Source: Torpedo marmorata (lineage: Eukaryota). Taken from it: DNA of 64,000 bases. The translations under genes and the position numbers were made by a program. Below the pieces are notes generated by a model. The model was not told where the DNA came from and searched no databases. It saw only the letters and a list, made by a program, of their open reading frames with translations. Below are positions 16,146 to 64,000 of the stretch, piece after piece (the first letter of the stretch is position 1; each line of letters starts with the position of its first letter). The stretch covers positions 101,184,001 to 101,248,000 of the forward strand of contig OZ360227.1 of assembly GCA_977017645.1 (NCBI GenBank), given 5' to 3'.

Positions 16146-16680
16146 TGTAAGAGCCATAGGCTTGGTTACTTACCTTCATCGCGGCGTTCCGATGTATCCA
16201 GCGGGTTTCAGAGGAGTTACGGAGATTAGTAGGCTGTGCTAGGCCTATTGAGTAATCTGCGCATGCGCGGGAGTGCCGACGGGCGCATGCGCAGTAGGGA
16301 AGTGGCTGGAGCATGCGCGGTGGAGTATGCGCGGTGGACCATGCGCGTTAATCAGGGAAGAAGTATATAAGAATATGGCGACTTAGAGGAGGGTGAGTGA
16401 GATCGCCATAGCTTTCATTGACCGTTTAAAGGAAGTTATAAAGAATCGTTTTAAAGGAAGTTTAAAGACGTTTTAAAGAATTGTTATTAAACATCATTAT
16501 CAAGAATTGTTTATATTTCGTTAAAGAAGATATTTAAGTCTTTGAAGATTGCTACAAGTCATCGTGTGTAAATAAAGTTTTTTAACCTATTGGACTTGTT
16601 AGTAAATTAATTGAAACGCGTCATGAACAAGTGTCTCACCTAGCCTCCAAGTGACTATTTGTTGGATTGAAATCACTATA
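16146..16680 (+). repeat. 5' LTR of BEL element
   Basis: TGTAA...CTATA; TATATAA at 16364; AATAAA at 16571; ~18 substitutions versus the 3' LTR counted by eye, many at CpG. Confidence 0.95.
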
Positions 16681-17139
16681 TTTTAGTCAATGAAAGTTTA
16701 TTGTTTGGAACAGAAAATTGAAGGAAAGAAGATAGAATAAGCTCTCTGTGCTTTGGACTGATATTTAAAATAAGATGGTGGCCATTTTGGAAATGCCTCG
16801 AGTTAGGGGCAGTTTGTAATCCACATCCATCTGCCATGAGTATCAGCCAGAGAGGGATATAGAGCTTCAAATCTTATAGTGAAGTGTCCTACAAAAATAC
16901 GCTGGAGAAACCATTTCTCGAAAATCAGCGATATTATTGACGGATGCTGCGGTGGAAACTCGTTTGTGAATAGTAGCACATTACAGTCATCTGAAGTGGT
17001 AGGCATAAGTCTGTGGACTCCTTCTGTGTATCTTTGGCAAGTTTGAACACAGATTGGATTTGCTGCCGCAGTCCATTGGGGACTGTTGATTTGGCTAGTG
17101 TTGTGTATGCTAGAACGACGGTGGAACAAGACAAGTAAA

Positions 17140-17784
17140 ATGGCCGCAGCAGCCACTGATGTTGCTGCTGAGGAACAACGTGTTGAAGACATGAAGGTTG
17201 TGGAGCTCAAAGAAGAATTGAAGCGACTGAAACTAGATACAACTGGAAATAAAAAGGTTCTCATCACAAGACTGAAGCTGGCAAAGGAAGAAGAGGCTGC
17301 TTCGTTTGATGAACATGAAGACAGCAACGTGGAAATGGCGGAAAATGTGTCACCAAATGATGAAGAAAACGAAGAGGATGAAGATGCAAAGGATGTACAA
17401 TTCGAATTGGTGAAGGAGGTAAGTAAGAAGACAACATCTGACCTATAGGATGAAATACAAGCATGTGACAGTGTCTCAAATGTTGAAAGCAGGAGAAGCA
17501 AACTAAGTTCCGGTTCAAGCTCCAGAGTTTATCGTACTTCAAGTTCTGCATCGTCACGTACAAAGGTTGAAGTTGACTTGGCCACTCTTCTTGCGCAACA
17601 AAAAACACTTAAGGATAAACATATTTTAGAACGACAGGAGGAGCAGCTAAGGCAAAAGGAGGAGCAGCTAAAGCAGCAGCTAGAGCAGCAGCTAAGCCAA
17701 GAGAAGGAGCAGCTAAGGCAGAGAAAGGAGCAGCAGGATCTGGAAGCAAACATTACTATTGCCAGGGCAAAAAAAAGGTACTAG
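17140..17784 (+). pseudogene. Gag N-terminus: SAP domain plus BEL gag coiled coil (in-frame stop at 17446)
   Basis: MAAAAT...VEDMKVVELKEELKRLKLDTTGNKKVLITRLKLA, then in the same frame DSVSNVESRRSK...LLAQQKTLKDKHILERQEEQL as in fish BEL gag. Confidence 0.8.
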
Positions 17785-18114
17785 AAGGCTCAATGGTATC
17801 TGTTACTCGGAGTAAATTATCTAAAGTGTGCAATGATAAGAAGTTATATTTTAAAAAAGAGCCACAGGAAAAGAAACCAACCAAAAAGGTAGATATTTTA
17901 GTACCAAGGGTACAAGACTTGCAAATACAAGGACAAATCCTTCAAGATCATGTTGTTATCGAGTCACATGTACCAGTGGTAACATCCGAAGACAAAGCTG
18001 TGGCTTGGGTTCGGTCAAACGATGCAGCTCCCTTGTCATCTGAGTCAAGCATCAGAAATATGGGAGAAACTACACCAGTGAGGTTTCCAGATACATTACC
18101 TGTAACAAGAGGCG

Positions 18115-19110
18115 GTGAACAGAGCAATGTATTGTCATCCAAAGGAAAGAAAAAATGAAATTGCTGCATCATTGATTCAGTTACAGTCTCTCTCTTCTTT
18201 GCTTAAGAAAGAGATTCAAACTTTTGATGGTGATCCACTTCAGTACCAAGCGCTCATGAAATCTTTTAGACGCAATATTGAAAATAAATGTCAAGACCCT
18301 GATGAATGTCTTTATTATTTGGAAATGTTCACAAAGGGACATCCAAGAGAACTTGTAAAGAGTTGTCAACATATGTCCTCAGAAAGAGGATTAGACAGAG
18401 CTAAGTCTTTACTAGAACAACATTTTGGCAACAAGCATCGAATTGCTTTAGCTTATATGGATAAAGCTCTTAAATGGACATCAATAAAACAGAATGATGT
18501 AAAGGCTCTACAAGCATGTACTCTCTTTTTAAGAGGATGTTGTAATGCCATGGAAGATATCGATAATATTCGTGAGCTTGACGTGCCTGGTAATATGCGA
18601 ATCATCTTAGATAAATTACCTTACAAGTTGTGGGATAGATGGAGAAATTTGGCTTGTGATTTACAAGAAAATTACAGTCAAAGAGCTACCTTAAAGGATT
18701 TGGTAAATTTTCTTGAACGACAGGTGTACATTGAAACAGATCCAATATATGGAAATACCAGAGACAATTCAATGGGGAACAAAGATGTAAGGAAGTCAAA
18801 CTCACAGCCTAGTCCAAAATTGAAAATGAGTACTTTTGCTACTAATGTGTCAGTTATAAATAAAGAAAAAGATAAAGTAAATAAGGAAAAGGAAAGTTTG
18901 ACTAATGAGAAGAGTTGTTTGTTCTGTAAAGGTGTACATGCTTTGGAAATGTGTTTACGGTTGGAAAAGAAGGAACATAATGAGAAGATCGCTTTCTTAA
19001 AGGAAAATGGAGTGTAGTTTAGCTGTCTGTGTAAAGGGCACATCAGTAAAAACTGCGAGAAGCGAATTAACTGTAACATATGCAATTTGAAGCATCCTAG
19101 AATGTTGCAT
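18115..19110 (+). pseudogene. BEL/Pao gag core (DUF1759-like) with three Cys/His knuckles
   Basis: EIQTFDGDPLQY...LYYLEMFTKGHPRELVKSC...LLEQHFG; CLFCKGVHALEMC, (stop replaces C)FSCLCKGHISKNC, CNICNLKHPRMLH. Confidence 0.9.
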
Positions 19111-20832
19111 ATCCATCAAAGAAACAAGGAATTGGAAAAGGAGCAAACAGAAACAAAGGAAACATCAGAAAACAATGTTATAGCCTCGGTTCAGACAAGT
19201 GGTCTTACCGGGGCCGGTATGGATAACTGCAAACTTTCAATAGTGCCTGTACAAGTCAAGATTAAGAACGGGGATGCAACAGTACATACGTATGCATTTC
19301 TCGACTCAGGCAGCACTGAATCTTTTTGCACGGTGGGACTAATGCACAAACTTAATATTCAAGGAAGAAGGTCAAGAATTATGTTGAAACCCATGGGACA
19401 AGAAAAGGTTGTTGAAACCAGCATTGTTTCAGGCTTAGAGGTTGCTGGATTGTATGACAAAAAATTTTGTGATCTTCCAAGTTTATATACTCAGAAGATT
19501 ATGCCTGTGCACGAAGGAAACATTCCGCATCAAAATGATTTCCATCATTTGTCTTATCTGTGGAAGGTTTATTTACCTGAAGTTAATTCTGAGATAGAAA
19601 TGCTGATTGGTTCAGATGTACCAAAGGTTCTGGAACCACCAGAAGTAATACAGAGTAGAGAGAATTGTCCTTACGCTGTTAGAACCAAGCTTGGTTGGCC
19701 AATCAATGGACCATTGGAAAGAAATAATGATATTGCACAGGAACAGTTAGTGATAAATGTTAACAGAATTTCGGTTGTGAAATTTGATGAGTTAAGGGAA
19801 GAGCAAAAGACTGTGAATAAGAAAGTCACTTTTGAAGAAAAGAAAACAGATCAATGTGAAAATAAATCAAAGGTATTTAAAACAACATTGAAGGAATTAT
19901 TTTCATCAGAAATGGATGAAAATGAAGTATTAGAAGATGTTGCAAATAATACTAGTGATTATTCATGTGTAATTGAATCAGAGGCAGGAATAAAACAAGT
20001 GACTGAGAACAAATTTGAAAGTAAATTTTGTAGTTCGGAGGTTACAGCAGACAAAGTCAATGAAGAAATGTCGCAATGTGATGTAAAACTGGAGAACACA
20101 GAAAATTGTGCTGATGGAATAAAGAAGAATGTGAATGATAATTTAATGCAATTGAATTCAGAGAACAAAATGTTGAAAGGGGAACTGGAAATATTGGATA
20201 ATCATGAAAACAGTAAACAGAAAGATTTCATTGTAAATAAAATTCGCAAAGTCAGAAAGCGGAAGAAAAGAATAACTGCTGAAGAAATAAATACAGTTAT
20301 TGAAGAAAGAGATTCAACATTATCAAGATGTAAAAGGTTGGAGGAAGAGATTCATTTTTTGAAAGAGATCAAGTTATTGGTTAATAACACAAAACAGCTG
20401 ACTATAGAAAACAATCAAGAATGTAAATTGAAGGTTCAGCTGTTAACAATGCAGAAAGAAAGTGATATTGCATTGCAGCAATGTAACAAGCAAGATGAAG
20501 AAATTCAAATATTTCAAGTTTACCATAGCAGGGTTGACAACAAAAGTATCAATGTATCACATGATATTTTCACTTCAGATCAAGTTATTAATTTCTCAGA
20601 AGGAACTGAGACTGAATTGAAAGTTGCAAAATTGGATTTGGAATTGCAGGAAAAGGCAATAGAAACCAGAGTGGTTAAAGAGACTCGTTTATTAAAATCG
20701 AGAGGATCAGATAAATATTCAAATTCTGGTTATGAAAGTTCAAATTATTCATATGAGAAACGACATGTTGAAGAAGTACCTTGTGTTAAATTCAAAAGGA
20801 AAAACTATCTATTTTGTCTGAGGAAGATTTGA
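19087..20832 (+). pseudogene. BEL aspartic protease fused to a non-pol tail containing a MIPOL1-like coiled coil
   Basis: SIVPVQV..TYAFLDSGSTESFC, MLIGSDVP, AVRTKLGWPINGP; then ITAEEINTVIEERDSTLSRCKRLEEEI where RT should be. Confidence 0.85.
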
Positions 20833-21088
20833 GGTTTACTGGTCGACGTTCTAACTCAAAGATTCTGGAGATAAAATAACTTTGATAAATACAAACTGAC
20901 TTTATTTTGTTATTTTGTATACTACACAGGTTACAGACTTTTACTGATCCAGAGTTATGGTAAACTCTGTTCTTATGAAGAAAGAAGATTTGTATATTGT
21001 TTGAATGTTATATGGTTATTGTTATTTGTAATTGATTGTATAATTATTATTTAAGACATTGCGTCTCGTTATAATAATTAGGGGCCGG

Positions 21089-21623
21089 TGTAAAAGCCAT
21101 AGGCTTGGTTACTTACCTTCATCGTGGCGTTCCGATGTATCCAGCGGGTTTCGGAGGAGTTACGGAGATTAGTGGGCTGTGCTAGGCCTATTGAGTACTC
21201 TACGCATGTGCGGGAGTGCCGACGGGCGCATGCACAGTGGGGAAGTGGCTGGAGCATGCGCGGTGGAGTATGCGCGGTGGAGCATGCGCGTTAATCAGGG
21301 AAGAAGTATATAAGAATATGGCGACTTAGAGGAGGGTGAGTGAGATCGCCATAGCTTTCATTGACCATTTAAAGGAAGTTATAAAGAATCATTTTAAAGG
21401 AAGTTTAAAGACGTTTTAAAGAATCGTTATTAAACATCGTTATCAAGAATTGTTTATATTTCGTTAAAGAAGATATTTAAGTCATTGAAGATTGCTACAA
21501 GTCATCGTGTGTAAATAAAGTTTTTGAACCTATTGGACTTGTTAGTAAATTAATTGAAATGCGTCATGAACAAGTGTCTCACCTAGCCTCCAAGTGACTA
21601 TTTGTTGGATTGAAGTCACTATA
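21089..21623 (+). repeat. 3' LTR of BEL element
   Basis: Direct repeat of 16146-16680, followed immediately by TSD CCATT. Confidence 0.95.
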
Positions 21624-33481: not shown

Positions 33482-36400
33482 TGACTGAACCCTAGAGAAA
33501 AAGATTATTCATTTTATTCTTTTAGACATGATCTAGGATAGATTTATTTTTATTATCATCACAGGTTCAAGATAGAATAACGCAAGCATCCTATAAAGCG
33601 AGAGTAATTTCTGATCATTCACCTTTGTTATTGTCTTGTATAATTCCGGAAAAAGAAAAAACTATATATAATTGGAGATTTGATTCGTCGTTATTAAAAA
33701 GGAAAGATTTTTGTGAATATATAAGAAGAGAAATTCAGGAATTTTTACGAATAAATGTTAATTCTATTAATGATAAATTTATAGTGTGGGAAGCTTTAAA
33801 AGCTTACTTAAGGGGTCTAATAATGTTATTCAGTTAAAATTAAGAAAGATTATCTTAAAGAATCAGAAAATCTGGAGAAGGAAATTGAACTTATGGAGAA
33901 AGACTTACAGAGAAATAGATCAATTCAAAAAAGAAATAGTTTAATAGGGAAGAAATTACATTATAATTTATTACAAACAGAAAGAATGGAAAAATTAATT
34001 GAGAAAACTAAACAAAGATATTATGAATTAGGAGAAAGAGCACATAAGGTTTTGGCATGGCAATTAAAAAAAGAACAAGTTTCTAAAACTATAAATGCTA
34101 TAAGGAAGAAAAATACTGGAGAAATAACTTATAAACCTCAAGAGATAAATGAATCTTTTAAAGATTATTATCAGAATTTATATAAATCGCAGATTGATCA
34201 AGATGATTCTAAAATTAATAGATTCTTATCTAAAATTGTATTACCTAAATTGAATATTCGGAGTAGAGACTCTTTAGATTTGCCTTTCACAATGAGGGAA
34301 GTTAGTGAAGTTTTTTCCTCGTTGAAGAGTGGTAAATCTCCGGGTGATGATGGGTTTTCATCAGAATTTTATAAAGAATTTAAAGATTTATTAATACCTC
34401 CATATATGGAGGTATTAGATCAAATTACTGAAACTCATTCATTACCGAAAACATTTTTAAATGCTATAATTACAGTTATAACAAAGAAGGATAGAGATGT
34501 ATTAAAAACTGAATCGTATAGACCTATTTCATTATTAAATGTAGATTATAAAATAATGGCAAAATTTTTAGCAAATAGAATGGCTAAATATTTGCCAGAT
34601 TTGATACATACAGATCAAGCTGGTTTTATTAAAAATAGATATTCAAAGGATAATATAACTAGATTAATTAGTTTAATTAGTTTACATAAAAAGAAACAAG
34701 ATTTACAATTAGTTGTAACATGAGACGCTGAAAAGGCTATTGATAGATTAGAATGGAATTTTTTATTTAAGGTATTAGAAAAATTTGGTTTTGGAAATAC
34801 ATTTATAAATTGGATTAAAACTATATATAAAGAACCATCAGCTAAAGTAATCACAAATGGACAAATATCGCCAAAATTTTCTTTGACACGTTCTACGAGA
34901 CAGGGATGTCCCCTGTCACCAGCTTTATTTGTTTTGGCGATAGAACCATTGGCTGAATTAGTTAGAAAAGATCCTAAGATAGTGGGTATTAAAGTTGGTA
35001 CGGAAGAACATAAGATTAGTTTGTTTGCAGATGATGTATTGATATATATGACAAAATCTATTATATCACTTCAACAACTATCTATTATATTAAGAGAATA
35101 TGGTGAAATATCTGGATATAAAATTAATTCTGATAAAAGTGAAATAATGGCTTTATCTCAGGGTGATTATACTAGATGTAAAGAAATTACACAATTTAAA
35201 TGGGCTAAAGAAGGAATTAAATATTTGGGGGTCAAGTTTGATACAAAATTGGAAAATTTATATAAATTAAATTATTTACCATTATTTGTGAAAATAAAGA
35301 AAGATTTAGAGAACTGGAAAGATTTACCCATAACTTTAATGGGAAGGGTAAATTGTATTAAAATGAATATTTTTCCAAGAGTGCAGTATCTTTTTCAATC
35401 AATTCCTTAAAAAAATTTTTAAGATTTAAATTTTATCGTTAGGAAATTTTTATAGAAAGGAAAGTTAGCAAGAGTAAGTATGGAAAAGTTAACTGGAATT
35501 ATGAGATGGGTGGATTGTAACTTCCTAATTTTCAAAATTATTATAAAGCAGCTCAACTGAAATTTGTTAATGAATTTTTTGATTTAACTAAATCTTCTGC
35601 TTGGATTAAAATAGAATTAAATAATATAGGAGAAGATCTTAAAGAAGAAATTATTTATAAATGGGATTCTAAATTAATATTATTAAAAAAGAAAAATTCA
35701 CCGATTATTAAACATTTGTTAGAAATATGGGGTAAGACGGATAAAGAGAGAGGTGGAAGAGGATTAATTTCTTCAAATATGCCATTATATCAAAATGGAC
35801 TTATATCATTTACTGTTAATAATCAGTTACTTAAAATTTGGTTTCAAAAAGGTATTAAGAAGATAAATGATTGTTTTGAAGCTGGAAAATTTATTATGTT
35901 TCAAAGAATGAAAGATAAATTTAATATACCAGATAATACATTTTTAGCTTATTATCAAGTTAAAGCTTTTTTGACTGAGAAATTAGGTTATGCTTTGATT
36001 TTACCAAGACAAAATGAATTAGAATTATTAGTTACTAATGGAGATGTTAATAAATTTATTTCTCAAATGTATAAATTGTTTCAGAGGATAATGCCTAAAA
36101 TAGGATTGCATAAATCAAGATTAAAATGGGAATTAGATTTAAATGTAAATATAGATGAAAATCACTGGAAAGATTTATGTAAGTTAAGTATGACGAAGAT
36201 TATTAATGTTAGATATAGACTAGTACAATATAATTTTTTTCATCAATTATATTTAACACCAAAAAAATTAAAGAAATTTAATTCGACATTATCAGGACTA
36301 TGTTTTAGATGCAATAATGAGGAAGGTTCTTTTGTTCATTCTACATGGTTTTGTCCAAAGATTCAAGATTTTTGGTTGAAAGTTAAAAAATTTTTAGATA

Positions 36401-36966
36401 AAGTATTTAATATTGTATTTCCAATGTTATTTTTATTTGGAGATATTAAAAAATTTAGTATTAAAAAGAAATTAAATATGTTTCAAGTAGAATTTTTACG
36501 AATTGCTTTAGCTGTTTCGAAAAAAATGCATTGCTATTACTTGGAAATCTGATTTAGATTTAGGATTAGAAAGATGGCATGCAGAGCTTCGTTCGTGTAT
36601 ACCACTGGAAAAAATTACTTATAATTTACGTAATAAATATCATTTCTTCTTGAAAATTTGGAGCCCATATATGAGAGCTGTGGGTTTAAGGATTTGAAGA
36701 TCTCTGGATATCGGATCTACTGGCACATTTGACCTCTATAATAGAATTAGTTTATAGATGGTATTCCCCTTATTCTATCTTTTTCTTTCTTTTTTTTTTC
36801 TATTTTTACTTTTATTTTAATTTTACTAGTTTAGTGGGGATGGGGGGGTTGGGGAGAGGAGGGAGGGTGGGGGGGTGAAAATGTAACACATGTATTTTGA
36901 TAATTTTATATTTTATTTTATGTATTTTGTGATTTAAAAGTTTAAATAAAATAATAAATTAAAAAA
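33482..36966 (+). mobile_element. 5'-truncated L1-clade LINE, disrupted ORF2
   Basis: Endonuclease end SDHSPL; KSPGDDG; YRPISLLNVDYK; RQGCPLSP; LFADD; CFRC..GSFVHSTWFC; polyA; TSD AAGAGAAGAGCAGT (33468-33481, 36967-36980) at a TTTT/AA site. Confidence 0.95.
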
Positions 36967-46906: not shown

Positions 46907-47377
46907 TTAACATCTTTTGGCTGTTGCTCTGGACTCCTCCCCCTGCAATTTTTCAGTCTCTATTCAGATGCCTTCCTGTTTTTTTACTCATACCATGAAG
47001 AAGGGCTCAGGCCCGAAACGTTTGTAATATATCTTTACCTCCTATGGATGCTACGAGACCTGCTGAGTTCGTCCAGCATTTCTGTGTTTTGACTACAATC
47101 ACAGCGTCTGCAGACTTTCGTGTTTCACCAGATACATCATTGCAGCTCCTGTTGGAATCGGAGGGGAAGGACTCAGGCATGGAATTACCTGCCCTGACTT
47201 CAGATGATTTGCAGGAGGGAGTGCTGGAGCGAGGGTCTCAAACAAAATCAGTGAAGCACACCTCTCTGTGACCTAATGGATGCACCAATTAATGTACATT
47301 CACATCATCCTCTTTCTCTCTCACTGTCTATCTGCAGCTTTTTGCCAGCAGTGAGCTGGTAAATGTTGTCGTGGGTC

Positions 47378-48298
47378 CAGTGGCTGAAGCCTAGGGGCCC
47401 AGAGGTTAAGGGGGCCCGAGCTCTAGGCTTCAGCCTACTCAGTAAAGGGTAGCCTGGTCTTGGATTATGGTTTCACACTTACCGCGCAGGTGAAACCGGT
47501 GACTGAGTCTGTGGGCCAGAGTCGGTGCCACGCCATTGCTGGTGTGACGCGCGCGGTGGTTTCTGGGAGCTGACAGCGGCGGCATGAAGATTTGCGGTGT
47601 GTGCGAGGAGGGGGCTCCGAAATACCAGTGTCCAGCCTGTCACCTGCGGTAGGTAAGTGAACAACGGGAGGGGTGCGCGGCCGGCGGGGTCTGAGTGGGT
47701 GAGAGTGTGTGTGTAGAGTCACCGGGTTGCGAGCAGCGAGTGCAGTTTCTATTGGGGGCCGTGAATAGTGGGAACGGTAGGAGAAGCAATCACTTGTCGG
47801 AGTTGGAGCGGCTGGGGTTCTGTTTGGTGACCGGACGCTGACGGGGCCGCCGGGTGGCTACTGTGGCCAGTTGGATTTGTGACTCGCATTCACTGCCTCC
47901 AGATGTTTCTGCGAGAACAGAGCATTTATTTTTAAAGGATGATATTTGCAGTTGTGTGGCTAATGATGACCAGCTGCACAGATTTCCCCACAGACTTGGC
48001 TGCGGCATTTCCAAGATTGGGTAATACAGTACAGGGAAATCAGCATTTAACACGTTACATTCCTTCGTGTAAATTAATCCAATCTCTTCTTCTTCCCAAC
48101 CCAACCCCCCAACACCCGTCAAACCTAAGCACTCCTAAATGAGAGGCCAGTAGCGAGTGGCGCCCGGGTGGGTGGTGGCCAGGCCATCGCTGGGGAGCGA
48201 GGGGCGGCGGAGGTAGCCCGGGCCCGTGGCAGGGCAAGGTCAGGGGGGGCCTTCCTAAAGCTCAGCCTAGGGCCTGGGTGGTAGTTAATCCACTACTG
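47378..48298. mobile_element. Non-autonomous hAT-type DNA transposon with captured genic DNA (Pack-TIR)
   Basis: 8-bp TSD CGTGGGTC (47370-47377, 48299-48306); imperfect TIRs CAGTGGCTG / CCACTACTG; GC-rich subterminal palindromes; no transposase. Confidence 0.8.
47584..47658 (+). pseudogene. ZNHIT3: Captured ZNHIT3-like exon 1 (zf-HIT N-half) with splice donor
   Basis: ggcATG-KICGVCEEGAPKYQCPACHLR followed by TAG GTAAGT; CxxC...KYxCPxC is the zf-HIT signature. Confidence 0.7.
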
Positions 48299-50979
48299 CG
48301 TGGGTCACCCATTTGCTGAACAACAAGGAAAGGTCTAATGAGTACATCTCCAAATATCCCATATACAAATGCATTCATTTGATTGCTGAATTAGATGCTC
48401 CATGCTACCAGACATCCCTCCCATAGGAAAGTCATCAGTGCAAGCATCTGTGGCATCATGGCAACCATGCTCCGGATGGGATCTCAATCTTTCTGCAAGC
48501 ACGTACAACTGGCCAGGATGGCAAACAATATGTGACACATTCTTTGCTGCAGTTTGCCAACAGTACCCAAGATCTATTATCTCCACCAAGCTGAGCGGAG
48601 CCTGGCCACTTCTGCTGCCTGGGGTACAGAATTGTCGCTGCTCTACCTGCCCCATCCACTGCTCGTGCTCATATGCAATATGTGAGTCACCAGGAGAAAC
48701 CCTAGTTGTTTTTCTTTCCCTAAGTGCAATATGTAAATCAAATACTCGACGTACACGAGTCCTGAGATATTACAGCCTCAGAAGGTATAGCCTTCTCCAA
48801 GCAGCCAGTGTTACTTGATATTTGAAAGCCCTATGGGAAATTAAAGATATGAATTTCAATGCCAAGGTAAGACTACTTTAATTGATAATAAGCAGATGAC
48901 TGTTTTCACTCACTGTTGAATCTTGCAAAATGGGTGAGTGCCAAATGCTAAGTGTATCTTCCATTCTCTTTCAATCTCCCGTGTCCAGTGCCTTGCTACT
49001 GTCCCAATGCGATATGAAATAAAAATACCAACCCTGTACATTGTATCCACCCCTGGATAGCAGGAAGGAGTACAGTATTGAAATTAGCTGTGAGCATTAT
49101 CTCTCTGAGAATATCATACAACTACCAACCCTGTCAAGAAGTATTGTAAAACTGTTACCACTGCACCTTTTGCCCCCTTATTAAAAGCTGAGGGTACAAC
49201 ATACTGGTTGTACAGTTACCTTGTCTCCACTTTCTGTCCAGTATAAAAGCAGAGGGGTCAAGACTGAGATATTAGCTATTATGATTAATTATTTGTTGAT
49301 GAGTTATCATTTCACAGAATTGTGACATTAGCAATTTATGATATCCTTTCAAAGTGCCTGTAATCTTTGCCATTAATGTTGTTACTGAATGCAAGACAAT
49401 ATAAACTTTATTGATAAGCATACCATTGTGTTAAAATGTTATGTGTCATTTGAAGCAATTAATGACAGAGAGTAAAGGTATCAACTGGTTCACAGTTTTA
49501 TCTTGTCTGCTTTAATCTAAGACCACAATTATGTAGCAATCAAAACCGCTATATTTATTGAGCAGCTTTCCATTGTAAGATGAATAGAATTTATTTTAAC
49601 TGAAATAAAATCTGATATATTATTTGCTTTCCCTTGCAAAGATTTAACTTCAAATTATATTTTTATTTCCCATTTTTATAAAAATCAATTTGAATGTTGA
49701 TTAAAACTAAGTTAAACCTGAGCTGCTAATACACTGAGTATCTTTCAAAGTCTTTTTACGTAGAATCAGCTTTTTTTGTTGTCTGTTAAAACATGGAAAT
49801 CCAATACCCTGAGGATTACTTTGCATGGCATTGACTTGGAAAAAAACAGGTATATAAGAAACTATAATCCAACTCAGACAGGATGTTGTTGTAAATTAGG
49901 TACAGAGCCAAGCATACAAGGAAATCATACTTACGTAATATGGTAGATTTTGATGTGAAAAAGGTCATTTTACAGAAATTTCCTCAATTGTACACAATAG
50001 CTACATGGATATAGTGATTTTAGTCAAAAGAATAAATTTTATGTTAAAGGGTTCATGTCATCACCAATGCACCCATGATTATAAAATAATACTGGTAATT
50101 GTGTCTACATAAGAGAGTTTAAAATGTTCTGGTTTGTGTATACACAATAATATCAATTTTGCAAAATCAGCTAAATCAAAGCATGAACCAATATTCAGAA
50201 GGGGAGTGAATTTTGAGAGATTCCTTCTCAGTAAAAGTCTTCGTGTAGCAAAAAAAAACACACACCAAGAAGGTTAGTGAGGTTTTAAAGCTGCTGCTTG
50301 CCAAATTCTGAAGGGCCACTGATTATGATTGAAGAACAGAACATCTTTCTTATATTTTTTTTAATTGAACTAAGACTGACGACTACTTTTTCTAGGTCAT
50401 GTGAATAATTTGCTTGTAACAAATGTTGAATGGTAATGTTTTAAACAGTGCTACTATCAGAAGTAAAAAACACAAAATGCTGGAGAAGCTCAGCAAGTCA
50501 AACAGTGTCCTTTATGTGGAAGTTCACCTTTGCTCTCTGCAACAACTACTGTTAGAAGCATGGGGCAGTAGAAAACACACTCTATGTAGGACGCACATTG
50601 AATGGACATCCAAGTTAATGGATGCTGCCTGTTCTGCCTGGCCTGCTGAGCATTTCCACTATATCAGCTTACATCTCAGGTTTCCTATTTCTGTGGTATT
50701 GTCTGGATCTGGGGACCACTGCTCATTCGAAAATACTCAGTGGTAGGTTCAGTTGATGCTTCCTGATGAAAATGTTGCTCATTTTCTATATATTTCTGGG
50801 CTATAGACCGACTGACTGACTGGCAGATCTTATAGTATAGAGGCCAAGGCTGTGGTAACCACCAAAATGAAGGAAACAGTTGGTTCGGCATAGACGTTAT
50901 CCACAGGTCAACCTGAAACAAATGAAATAGTTTACCCACAGCTTCTCAAGGACACTTCCTCCCATCCTGCCAACTCCCA

Positions 50980-59929: not shown

Positions 59930-60800
59930 CATTCGCCACAGCGGAGTTAAACCACAGTATGGTTCCCGGGGTACACACAGTACAATGGAAGCTTTGTCAT
60001 AAAGCCTGAAACAGGAAGTATCCGAAAGGCGGGGGTCAAACGGCACCAGTGGCGACAGTGAGCTGAGCAATTGGAGAAGAGCTTGTGATATTTGCTGAGT
60101 TACTGACCTGGGGCCTGGTGCCATTTGGGCAATTGCGCCAGTGCCTGCAACCAGAGCGGGTCCCCAGTGTCCCGAGTGGACGCCAGGTGATCAGGCTCAA
60201 TGCTGCCTGGTCTCAGACATGGCTGCAGCGCAGGCACAGGTGAGAGGCGGCAGAAGTGAAGTTGACAGCACGGAAAGAGGAGGGAGGACACCGGCAAGAC
60301 ATGCAGGCTGGCAATGTTCAGCAGACTCGCTTTCAATGAGCTGGATTACCGAGGTACCATCGCCCGTCAACGAGAAGGCTATTATATTTTTATTTGTCGT
60401 TTTGTGCTCATTTGGACACCTGCGCATCCAAGATTGAGCTTTGTGCGCCCTATCGCACGGACTGTACAACAGGTGAGATTCGGCTACCAGTGACCCTTTC
60501 AGAATTCCATCTTTTAGGTCAAAGACTCTCAGTTTTCTGCATCCTTGGATGTTGTTCCCCAAACCAAAATGTGTGTCAATTCTCCGCCTACCCACTAGAT
60601 GGAAGAGTTGCGTCTTCCATCGCCTGTGACGATGAGAATGTGGCCAACACCAGGCAGGGGCGGGGGAGAATGTTTGCCCGGGTCCGAGGAGGAAAGGAAG
60701 CGTTGACACACTTTGGAAACTTTCACAGGGAAGAAAACATTTCCGAAAATCATCTAAATGCTACGTGTGGAAAGTTGACGGACAATCAAACACATTTAAA
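59930..60800 (+). promoter_or_regulatory. CpG-enriched probable promoter and first exon of a host gene
   Basis: Local CpG enrichment in unique sequence; ETS CAGGAAGT (~60013); GC boxes (~60028, ~60657); gacATGG MAAAQAQ|GTGAGA (60219-60239); second donor CAG|GTGAGA at 60472/3. Confidence 0.5.
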
Positions 60801-60991
60801 CGTACTGCTTTTACCGAAGGGGTGAAGTTGTCATCTCCAGAGAAACAATATTCTTTCCACTTTGCACAGGCAGTGAAAATAGAAAAATAACATTGAAAAA
60901 AAGACATGGCGTGTATCTGCACATGTCATAGGAATTCTGTGAATGCTCCTGGCACCGTCGTGTCATTAAAAACGGAGCCTTAATTATTACA

Positions 60992-61247
60992 AAGTAAAAC
61001 TCGAAAATCTGTAGACACCGTGGTTGAAGTAAAAAAACACAAATGCTGGAGAAATTCAGCAGGTCAAACAGTGTCTTTTATGTAGCAAAGGTAGAAATAC
61101 ATAACCAAGGTTCGGACGCCTGCCGGCACTTTCTCATACTTTGATGAAGGGCTCAAGCCCGAAACGTCGGTTATGTATTTCTACCTTTGCTACATAAAAG
61201 ACACTGTTTGACCTGCTGAGTTTCTCCAGCATTTGTGTTTTTTACTT
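60992..61247 (+). mobile_element. Fold-back Penelope mini-element
   Basis: ~80-bp inverted arms (~61028-61107 and 61169-61247); flanking direct repeat CTTAATTATTACA (60979-60991, 61245-61257). Confidence 0.85.
61135..61175 (+). ncRNA. Minimal type I hammerhead ribozyme motif
   Basis: CATACT-TTGATGA-A-GGGC(TCAA)GCCC-GAAA-CGTC-GGTTATG: core boxes, stem II, GUC site, stem I with one bulge. Confidence 0.68.
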
Positions 61248-63734
61248 AATTATTACAGGAGGGTTACCATTGCCCAATTTTAAATAATCTGTCAATTGCC
61301 ACCAAATAAAATATGTGGCAATTGACAGAAAAAAAGGCCAAAGCCCAGTAAATTAACGAAGAAAGAAACATTAACAAGCTGAAGAGTTTGGTCAGAACAG
61401 TGAAACTAGGCACTGATAATTTCACACACACCACTCATTCTATTGAATATTAATAAATGTTTCAATTTGATTAATATTATTTAGTTGCTTTCGCTCCTGT
61501 AATGTCAACACTAAGGTGATGGAACCATCATCTGACGTTTGTGGTGACACAAACAGTGGCCTCTTGGGTTGAGAACCATCAGGTGTAAAACTCCAATGTA
61601 TGCCCGGCCCGGAGAAGGCAATGGAGAAGGAGGCGAAAAATATAAACTCAGCAAAATACTTTCATCACCTCTATACAGACGATTCTCCACCAGGTACGTT
61701 CTGAAGGTCAACGCAGCTGGACCCCATCGTGATCTCGGAGAAAAAGCAAGTGTCAGAATGTTGAAGCTACTTCATTGGCCTGAAGAGATGATCTGCTTTA
61801 TGAATGTTCTGCTGCGTGGCTGGGACCATCATTCACAGAAAAAAGTATCCTCCTTACAGTCATGGGAGGATGGAAAGAACATTAAGCAGACCACACATAT
61901 CCCGGTCATTCACCTCCCCCATTACAACACAAGGCACACACGAGCAATCACCTGGCTATATGTTTGGGCTGGATAAAGAGTTAGAAACTGTAAAACATAA
62001 TGATGGCCTCACAGACAGGGTCTGAGCACATGGCAAAATATATTGGATAGGCTTTACAGCAATTTGTCATTTTAATTGACATGCTACACACAAAATATTC
62101 GGTCCCCTTTTTGTACTGGCACTCAATCAGCCACAGTCAGCTTGTGTATGTCTGGACAAGAATGAGGGGAGCATGCGCAGTGCTGGGTTGCTGACACCTA
62201 CCCCAGTTCCATTCCAAGCAGTGCTAGATGCATTGGGCCTACTATGTGATAGAACTAGCAAAAGTAGAATTACCGCTAAAATTCATCTTTCAGAATAAAT
62301 CTGGTTTTACCCCCAAAAATGCCACAGAGTCAAATATAGTGACAAAAATGTACAGAATCTCAGATATTGATTAAAATTGGGGTGACTTACTGTTTTAAAC
62401 AGTTATTCTAGCTAATATGCTTGTCATCAATTGCTTATTTTTCGACGATTAACATTTATGTGACAAAAGCCACCTCATTCCAATCATGTTCTCCTTGTGA
62501 ATGTTTTGCCAAGTTACTGAGTAAATTGAGAACTCTGCCAGTTCTTCACTGGGCGCCACATTTACTTCATCAAATTGGGACTTTTCATTTCACTTTGTAG
62601 ATTGCTAGCTGTGTCTCAGCCAGTGGCCTCAAAATCAGATAGCTGTGGGTTCGGAGAGGGGAGTGTGAGATGCAGTACAGTCATGTCTGTGAAAGTACGT
62701 TCTGCACAGCGGAGGTTTGGGTGGTATAAACTTATTTTCTAGCAGACCCCAGCGACCTTTGGCATTTCTCATTGCGTAGATTTAAAGAAAGGAAGGTATG
62801 CACACCCGAATGTGTTACAAATTAGCAACAAGAGTCGAAGATCAAGATGGAAAAGAGTGTTTGTTCCGATTAATGAGCCTGAGTGAAACCTGCAACCTTT
62901 TGTTTTAATTGTGACCTTTAGGAGAAATCCTATGGCAAGGAAGTTGAGAGTCAACCTAACTTTGAGAACTCAGTGCAGACAAAAGAGAGTGGCCAAAGAT
63001 CTTCCCATAGTATCACGTATATCACAGAAAATCTAAGCCTGTGGATATTCTGTTCATCAGTAGGACACTGTGTCTCTGTGAGAGTAGTTCCCTTGCAACT
63101 GAACATTTCATCATCCTTGCCTCAGGGTTCACAATCAACGCCTCAGGTGACAGAGAGACCATGGAGGCCCCACTGCAACTAAATGCTGATAAAAACACTT
63201 CCAATTTGCTTGAGAATGCTTTGTGAACGTGTTGGAGCAGCCTGCACTTAGTTCTGAATCTGCCTGGTCATTCATCCTCAAACTTTTGTTGAAGTGAACA
63301 TAAACAGAACAATGTAGCCCAATGTACACCTCGCTGCACTGTGGCTGTTCATGGACTGTGTGTACGTTGCACATGTAAACTTCAACTTCTATTGATAAAG
63401 TGGTCTGTATGCAACTTGTGACTCCATTAGATGCATGTCTCGCACTGAAAGTATGACAGGTACGTTGAGTGAGTAGGACATGAAAATACCTGTGATGATT
63501 CCACCTGGAAAAGATTGGTCATGCAATCTAACCTGGATAAACTTGCTTTTATGTACAATTTGCACATAGAAAACAGGCACCAATTGATCCAAATTTAGGG
63601 CTGCAACTGGGAAAGGCTGCAGAAATGTTTCAGGAGATCATTCAAGTATTGTGAGTTAAGCCAGGTACAAAACCAATCTCTGATAAACCTTAACCTCTCA
63701 CAATCCATTGAAAAAGCAGGTGGAAGGAGAGTTT

Positions 63735-64000
63735 AATAAATTTAAATTTTTCTTTAACGAGTGGTAAATCTCCAGGGGAAGATGGTTTCCCATCAAAGTT
63801 TTATAAGGAGTTTAAAGATTTATTGATACCTCCATATATGGATGTGTTGAAACAAATAACGGAAACTCATTCGTTACCGGAAACATTTTCGAATGCAATA
63901 ATTACAGTTATACCTAAAAAAGATAGAGATGTGTTGAAAACAGAATCATATGGACCAATTTCATTGTTAAATGTGGATTATAAGATAATGGCAAAAATTT
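63735..64000 (+). mobile_element. L1-clade ORF2 fragment (runs off the window)
   Basis: SGKSPGEDGFPSKFYKEFKDLLIPPYMDVL...PISLLNVDYKIMAK, same family as ~34320-34570. Confidence 0.9.

Follow-up and report, generated by a model that had tools for sequence, protein, structure and literature searches.

A probable Pack-hAT element carrying a decayed ZNHIT3 first exon in the genome of the ray Torpedo marmorata

In a 64,000-nucleotide stretch of Torpedo marmorata genomic DNA (the whole of the DNA analysed, called here the window), we found a 921-bp insert at 47378-48298 that is flanked by exact 8-bp repeats and holds the coding part of a ZNHIT3 first exon. This insert is very likely a non-autonomous Pack-hAT transposon with Tip100-like ends, which carries a decayed copy of ZNHIT3 exon 1 together with the genomic surroundings of that exon. 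Gene-fragment capture by DNA transposons is already catalogued in vertebrates, and the element is a clean new example of it.

ZNHIT3 (Hit1 in yeast) is a box C/D snoRNP assembly factor encoded by a housekeeping gene, and its HIT finger provides eight ligands for two zinc ions. On the plus strand of the insert, an ATG at 47584 opens the peptide MKICGVCEEGAPKYQCPACHLR, whose 22 codons (47584-47649) include the first four cysteines of the HIT zinc finger and are followed by TAG at 47650-47652 and GTAAGT at 47653-47658, just as the original prediction had read them. The peptide matched the Pfam zf-HIT family with 29.4 bits (cut-off 24.7; E 6.7e-7), and zf-HIT was the only Pfam family detected in the element's frames of at least 22 aa. 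A profile search in which 8000 candidates were scored returned five proteins at E ≤10, and the three significant matches, from Narcine bancroftii, Amblyraja radiata and Scyliorhinus canicula, were all named ZNHIT3. The peptide is identical to Narcine bancroftii ZNHIT3 (XP_069768289.1) at 20 of the 22 residues, the differences being A10G and R15Q, while identity over the same residues fell to 17-18 in skates, 14-16 in stingrays, mantas and sawfish, and 10 in the elephant shark, supporting the ZNHIT3 identity that had been proposed for this exon. By this ranking the host is probably a ray and, of the groups sampled, closest to the electric rays. Other HIT-finger genes were ruled out as the parent because the named matches were all ZNHIT3 and the next matches had E values of 1.6 and 5.2. 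Sequence searches of the PDB matched Hit1, ZNHIT3 and Bcd1 weakly, without telling the paralogues apart, and a PDB profile search ranked ZNHIT3 first (E 0.021). No candidate was returned by a single-sequence word search with the peptide, and ESM Atlas contained no match at ≥0.9. An HMMER protein search with a 34-residue frame yielded two matches, both of which were rejected as long repetitive prokaryote-type proteins with scores summed over repeats. Chimeric or additional loaded copies were absent from the results of the protein searches, which are weak for such copies. In two catshark species, a second full-length ZNHIT3-like model lies on another contig, so that in sharks ZNHIT3 has undergone a separate duplication.

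The end of the exon was examined in a comparison set of 161 ZNHIT3 sequences (isoforms included, and so not independent), 151 of which bear the finger. The first half of the finger is lacking in 10 of the 161, and all ten join the shared part of the protein at the Tyr that follows HLR, in agreement with the claim that exon 1 ends inside this Tyr codon. In these ten models the residue at the Tyr position is Ser, Gly, Cys or His; since Gly, Cys and Ser occur at the joining position, a phase-1 intron is excluded. Two elephant-shark models run from a pyrimidine tract into Ser, which fits an acceptor AG followed by one exon base (AG+C) and hence a phase-2 intron. We infer that intron 1 of ZNHIT3 is in phase 2 and that the parent should read TA/GT at the junction (the slash marks the splice site). 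Human ZNHIT3 exon 1 likewise ends within the Tyr codon, which agrees with the phase-2 assignment. No boundary for exon 1 of ZNHIT3 was found in PMC13736010, and residues on both sides of the exon boundary are described as supporting a zinc site (PMC9418376).

In the copy, the junction at 47650-47658 (plus strand) reads TAG/GTAAGT, which is one G more than the inferred TA/GT, so that a stop codon replaces the split Tyr codon directly before a consensus splice donor. Among the 151 finger-bearing sequences, 149 have Arg and 2 have Lys at position 15, and all 151 have Tyr or His at the Tyr position; the copy has Gln at the former and the stop at the latter. R15Q would correspond to a single step from CGG to CAG, that is, a CpG transition. 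Judged by its sequence, the exon copy is decayed, with Gln15 and the stop-forming extra G as its two disabling changes. The copy cannot make ZNHIT3; at most, it could supply a peptide of 22 residues containing half of a zinc finger, or a promoter and donor for nearby DNA.

No other ZNHIT3 exon was found in the window: a tblastn search with 8 orthologues as queries and a six-frame profile search run unfiltered both matched only 47578-47649, the next best matches having E values of 0.09 and 3.8. Twelve consecutive 10-mers taken from the protein past exon 1 reached no more than 6/10 anywhere in the window, compared to 9/10 for two exon-1 10-mers, and the exon 2 peptide was not found anywhere in the window. 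The exon is thus an orphan first exon. Retrocopying (a processed pseudogene) was rejected because exon 1 runs into a donor and not into exon 2, which is absent. The homology ends at the exon 1 boundary and the donor follows, as is expected for a capture of genomic DNA and not of spliced RNA. The original prediction had taken the retained donor and intron as the mark of such DNA-level capture, and here the consensus donor, the non-coding DNA behind it and the absence of exon 2 bear it out, but the junction itself is TAG/GT and not an intact parental TA/GT.

We also considered whether this could be the real first exon of ZNHIT3, with exon 2 lying past the end of the window (which would make intron 1 longer than 16 kb) and the extra G being an assembly error. 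The 20/22 identity, the CpG island character and the consensus donor are what a real exon would show, and a one-base error in a run of G would be possible. However, the later exons are absent from the 15.7 kb downstream, Gln stands where 151 of 151 relatives have Arg or Lys, and the exon sits inside a duplication-bounded insert, which makes this explanation highly improbable. A complete HIT finger, an open junction and the C-terminal domain, as a functional gene would have, were not found; there were instead the stop, R15Q and no later exon in the window. A true exon 1 spliced to downstream exons, the case that would have spoken against capture, is therefore contradicted both by the 15.7 kb without a later exon and by the two disabling changes.

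The DNA around the exon is CpG-rich, as had been noted for the insert: 47446-47870 has a GC content of 0.61 and a CpG observed/expected ratio of 0.90, compared to 0.48 and 0.21 in one flank and 0.47 and 0.23 in the other. The two flanks are alike in composition and both are unlike the insert, and the change begins at the boundary. On the plus strand, the DNA 5' of the ATG (47443-47583; GC 0.62 and CpG o/e 0.88 in 47446-47583) is presumed to be the ZNHIT3 promoter and 5' UTR, and the non-coding DNA past the donor (47653-47870; GC 0.62, CpG o/e 0.98) is presumed to be the start of intron 1. It is followed at 47871-48140 by an AT-richer (GC 0.41 in 47871-48090) and then C-rich stretch, which may be intron cargo or transposon interior. 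When the DNA 5' of the ATG was compared with the 26-residue extension of Narcine ZNHIT3, 165 of 200 shuffles were as good (31 of 400 at the codon level), and no comparison with the N-terminal extensions of five orthologue models was significant, the best being equalled by 14 of 200 shuffles. As there is no significant match to the Narcine extension, the host need not be N. bancroftii, and the upstream DNA is ascribed to ZNHIT3 by its position and composition only.

A second donor-like G/GTAAGT, matched as a 7-mer, lies on the minus strand at 47477-47483 and faces away from the ZNHIT3 exon; 7-mers of this type number 11 on both strands of the window, two of them inside the element. The two donor regions (47477-47493 and 47640-47659) form an imperfect inverted repeat, alike in 17 of 20 columns, and 18 of 2000 shuffles were as good. 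The minus strand also has an 18-codon frame that starts with ATG and runs up to the minus-strand donor. The inverted repeat may reflect a first exon in head-to-head orientation, a foldback that formed during capture, or chance.

Outside the insert, 47130-47377 and 48300-48700 are alike in composition and have the look of a single older repeat that has decayed; no Pfam family was found in their frames, and broken minus-strand frames near 48460-48580 resemble a Myb/SANT-like Harbinger frame. About 40 bp upstream of the insertion, the plus strand has a splice-acceptor-like pyrimidine tract ending in CAG (47305-47338).

The boundaries of the insert proved exact. It starts with CAGT and ends with ACTG, and the target-site duplication CGTGGGTC is present in identical copies at 47370-47377 and 48299-48306, so that both the 921-bp span and the exact 8-bp duplication claimed for it were confirmed. 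Duplications of 8 bp are a signature of hAT elements (PMC12511174). We counted structures in which an exact 8-bp repeat surrounds 4-bp inverted ends starting with CAG or TAG over a span of 80-3000 bp. The insert, which is read on the plus strand and is without a transposase, was the only one in the 64-kb window. Dinucleotide shuffles gave 0.575 such structures per window, and in 2 of 200 shuffles one spanned the insert locus. No second copy of the 921-bp insert was found in the window by BLASTN.

The terminal repeats are imperfect. The left one, CAGTGGCTGAA (47378-47388, plus strand), and the right one, which reads CAGTAGTGGAT inward (48288-48298, minus strand), share four perfect bases and are alike at 7 of 11 positions. 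The terminal repeat of Tip100, as printed in PMC12511174, is also 11 bp long and starts with CAG, and it is matched at 8/11 by the left end and at 7/11 by the right end. Among the 2463 CAG-starting 11-mers of the window, 46 reach 8/11 to Tip100 and 189 reach 7/11; in the GC-richer 44-49 kb region the corresponding numbers are 9 and 33 of 218, and both counts include the element's own ends. The element thus resembles Tip100 in its CAG-starting 11-bp ends and its 8-bp duplication, but unlike Tip100 it has no transposase and its ends are degenerate, and its hAT subfamily is given as a resemblance only. Over longer spans the similarity of the two ends is not significant: when the outer 30, 60 and 100 bases were aligned end-to-end, 665, 571 and 876 of 2000 shuffles, respectively, were as good, and the weak k-mer sharing between the ends was matched by 326 and 599 of 5000 shuffles. 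In the window, AGCCTAGG occurs only at 47388 and 48264, one near each end of the element, and the GC-rich right end (48141-48298, plus strand; GC 0.70) has both AGCCTAGG and TCAGCCTA in common with the left end.

The left end is marked by a 63-bp palindrome (47378-47440), which may be a set of inverted subterminal repeats, or else a very small MITE whose inner end is damaged. It begins exactly at the left boundary of the element, with the hairpin running from the second base, and has perfect 13-bp arms at 47382-47394 and 47423-47435. The DNA fold of 47378-47450 has an energy of -21.9 kcal/mol (z -5.1), and none of 200 shuffles was equally stable.

These ends bear on a further explanation, in which a short stretch from the 5' end of ZNHIT3 was duplicated, either without any transposon or by way of a carrier from another superfamily, and in which chance or repair produced the 8-bp repeat and the CAGT ends. 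In its favor, the element ends are weak, and minimal structures of this kind do arise in shuffled windows at the rate given above. Against it, few of the shuffles place such a structure across the locus, each end is similar to the Tip100 repeat, and the boundary is where both the palindrome and the shift in composition set in; we therefore give this explanation only a small probability. Counting against the Pack-hAT reading are the poor terminal repeats, the lack of significant similarity between the ends over longer spans, the single copy in the window, the DNA upstream of the ATG, which fitted the Narcine extension no better than shuffles did, and the lack of a transposase family in the scanned frames.

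Under the Pack-hAT reading, a hAT transposase acting in trans would have inserted the ends at this site and made the 8-bp duplication. The cargo would have been copied from the 5' end of the host ZNHIT3 gene, taking in upstream CpG-island DNA, exon 1 with its donor, and the first part of intron 1. It would have entered at the DNA level during break repair inside the element, by template switching. On balance we favor this template-switching route, either as gap filling or as fork switching followed by transposition. The copy would then have decayed neutrally, through the change of CGG to CAG at a CpG and the extra G at the junction. A candidate left inner breakpoint is CTCAG at 47438-47442 (plus strand), which shares microhomology with 48261-48265. 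These are the only two plus-strand copies of CTCAG in the element, the motif being common window-wide (92 on the plus strand and 81 on the minus strand). Near this pair, TCAGCCTA occurs at 47430 and 48262, and TAAAG lies just inside both. These candidate microhomologies (CTCAG, TCAGCCTA and TAAAG) are short and were identified only in retrospect.

A composite origin, which would also make the element a Pack-hAT, is possible although doubtful. Here, the parental exon 1 would have lain between two small hAT elements, with the 63-bp palindrome on its upstream side and a piece of 151 bp (48148-48298) within intron 1, and the transposase would have used their outer ends and moved everything between them. 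The left 63 bp indeed form a palindrome complete in itself, with an inner end that departs from a terminal repeat at the last base, and CAGTAGCG at 48148, a candidate inner terminal repeat, agrees with the right end in 7 of 8 bases at the point where GC rises to 0.70. This kind of capture has been proposed for plant Pack-TYPE elements, hAT included (10.1101/2021.06.18.448592). On the other hand, an interior CAGTAG is unremarkable, as there are 37 in the window on both strands, and in the 151-bp piece the inverted similarity does not extend past 8 bp and the fold is no better than that of shuffles (11 of 200 as good). In addition, one hAT end by itself normally carries quasi-palindromic subterminal repeats, as in Hermes (PMC10368747).

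The original prediction had called such elements sparsely described in vertebrates, which overstated their rarity. The survey of Tan et al. 2021 (PMC8277862) covered 100 animal genomes, 81 of them from vertebrates, and catalogued 370 Pack-TIRs in 55 of these genomes, with hAT as the commonest carrier (208 of 370) and exonic cargo in 13.4%. One of them, hAT-N8_XT of Xenopus tropicalis, carries 291 bp of the CAPSL 5' UTR, and this frog hAT has spread the 5' UTR piece to three chromosomes (PMC8277862). The same paper attributes most single-copy animal cases to gap filling, noting microhomology in 190 of 281, and the multicopy cases to fork switching followed by transposition. Of the 281 cases, 160 lie within 15 kb of the parent and 4 are multicopy; all four multicopy cases are distant from the parent, and the distant cases are mostly single-copy (PMC8277862). 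ZNHIT3 is absent from the main text and 12 supplementary files of PMC8277862, and the literature searched, with subscription papers mostly outside its reach, held no earlier report of a ZNHIT3-carrying element.

Like the animal Pack-TIRs, the element described here is a non-autonomous TIR element bounded by a target-site duplication, and it encloses a short segment of host genomic DNA, namely ZNHIT3 exon 1, which is non-transposon sequence. Unlike hAT-N8_XT and other animal Pack-hATs, its cargo is a coding first exon with its start codon, donor and CpG-island DNA, and unlike the 160 of 281 surveyed Pack-TIRs that lie near their parent, it has no parent in the 47 kb upstream or the 15.7 kb downstream. 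Pack-hATs also exist in maize (10.1101/2021.06.18.448592). In plant Pack-MULEs, a GC-rich host fragment raises the local GC content, and a subset carries host-gene promoter DNA (PMC5861414). The GC-rich host fragment raises local GC in the present element as it does in plant Pack-MULEs and Pack-TYPE elements, but the element has short hAT-type ends and an 8-bp duplication in place of long MULE repeats, and one cargo gene was identified in it. Compared with Narcine ZNHIT3, the copy retains the first 22 residues of the HIT finger, 20 of them identical, but is limited to exon 1, with R15Q, a stop at the Tyr, and the remainder of the finger and the PF21373 C-terminal domain missing.

The element extends gene capture by DNA transposons to cartilaginous fishes, of which the species table of PMC8277862 lists only the elephant shark, with 0 cases. 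For now, the element amounts to one decayed fragment that shows no hint of function. Nevertheless, a CpG-island first exon with its donor is a kind of cargo that could act as a movable promoter. We regard as rather unlikely the further idea that the ray has a young multicopy Pack-hAT family spreading the ZNHIT3 CpG-island start as a portable module, which would consist of a promoter, a stop-terminated first exon and a consensus donor, perhaps together with another donor that faces the opposite way. If such a family existed, new transcripts initiated within its copies could be spliced to host exons of either strand, and it would be the first of its kind for cartilaginous fishes within the literature searched.

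The rest of the window is rich in retroelement fragments, and Rfam gave 0 matches in it. In Pfam scans, which could miss short exons, no host exon or transposase above the cut-off was found in 97 frames near the element, in 135 of 135 plus-strand frames downstream, or in 300 of the 312 frames outside masked repeats (the 12 minus-strand frames at 61514-63732 were left out). A second GC-richer, CpG-bearing stretch lies at 60000-60900 (GC 0.49 in 60001-61000), and its frames of 161 and 187 aa contained no Pfam family above the cut-off. At 61027-61247, an inverted self-match of ~220 bp corresponds to two head-to-head copies of a common retroelement tail. Broken LINE ORF2-like frames, which we take to be of the L1/Tx1 type, occupy 33824-36552, with a second copy, 84% alike, at 63751-64000. 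An LTR element at 16146-21623, presumably of the BEL/Pao type, has two 535-bp LTRs that are 96.6% alike, a 5-bp duplication (CCATT), and DUF1759 and protease-like frames. Before the gag of this element, a frame at 17137-17448 encodes a SAP domain (PF02037; E 5e-11) and includes a donor-like GGTAAGT at 17418. The start of this frame resembles SAFB/SLTM, and searches against the PDB gave generic SAP matches only; the LTR element with its SAP domain is possibly the other gene capture that the original prediction counted in the window.
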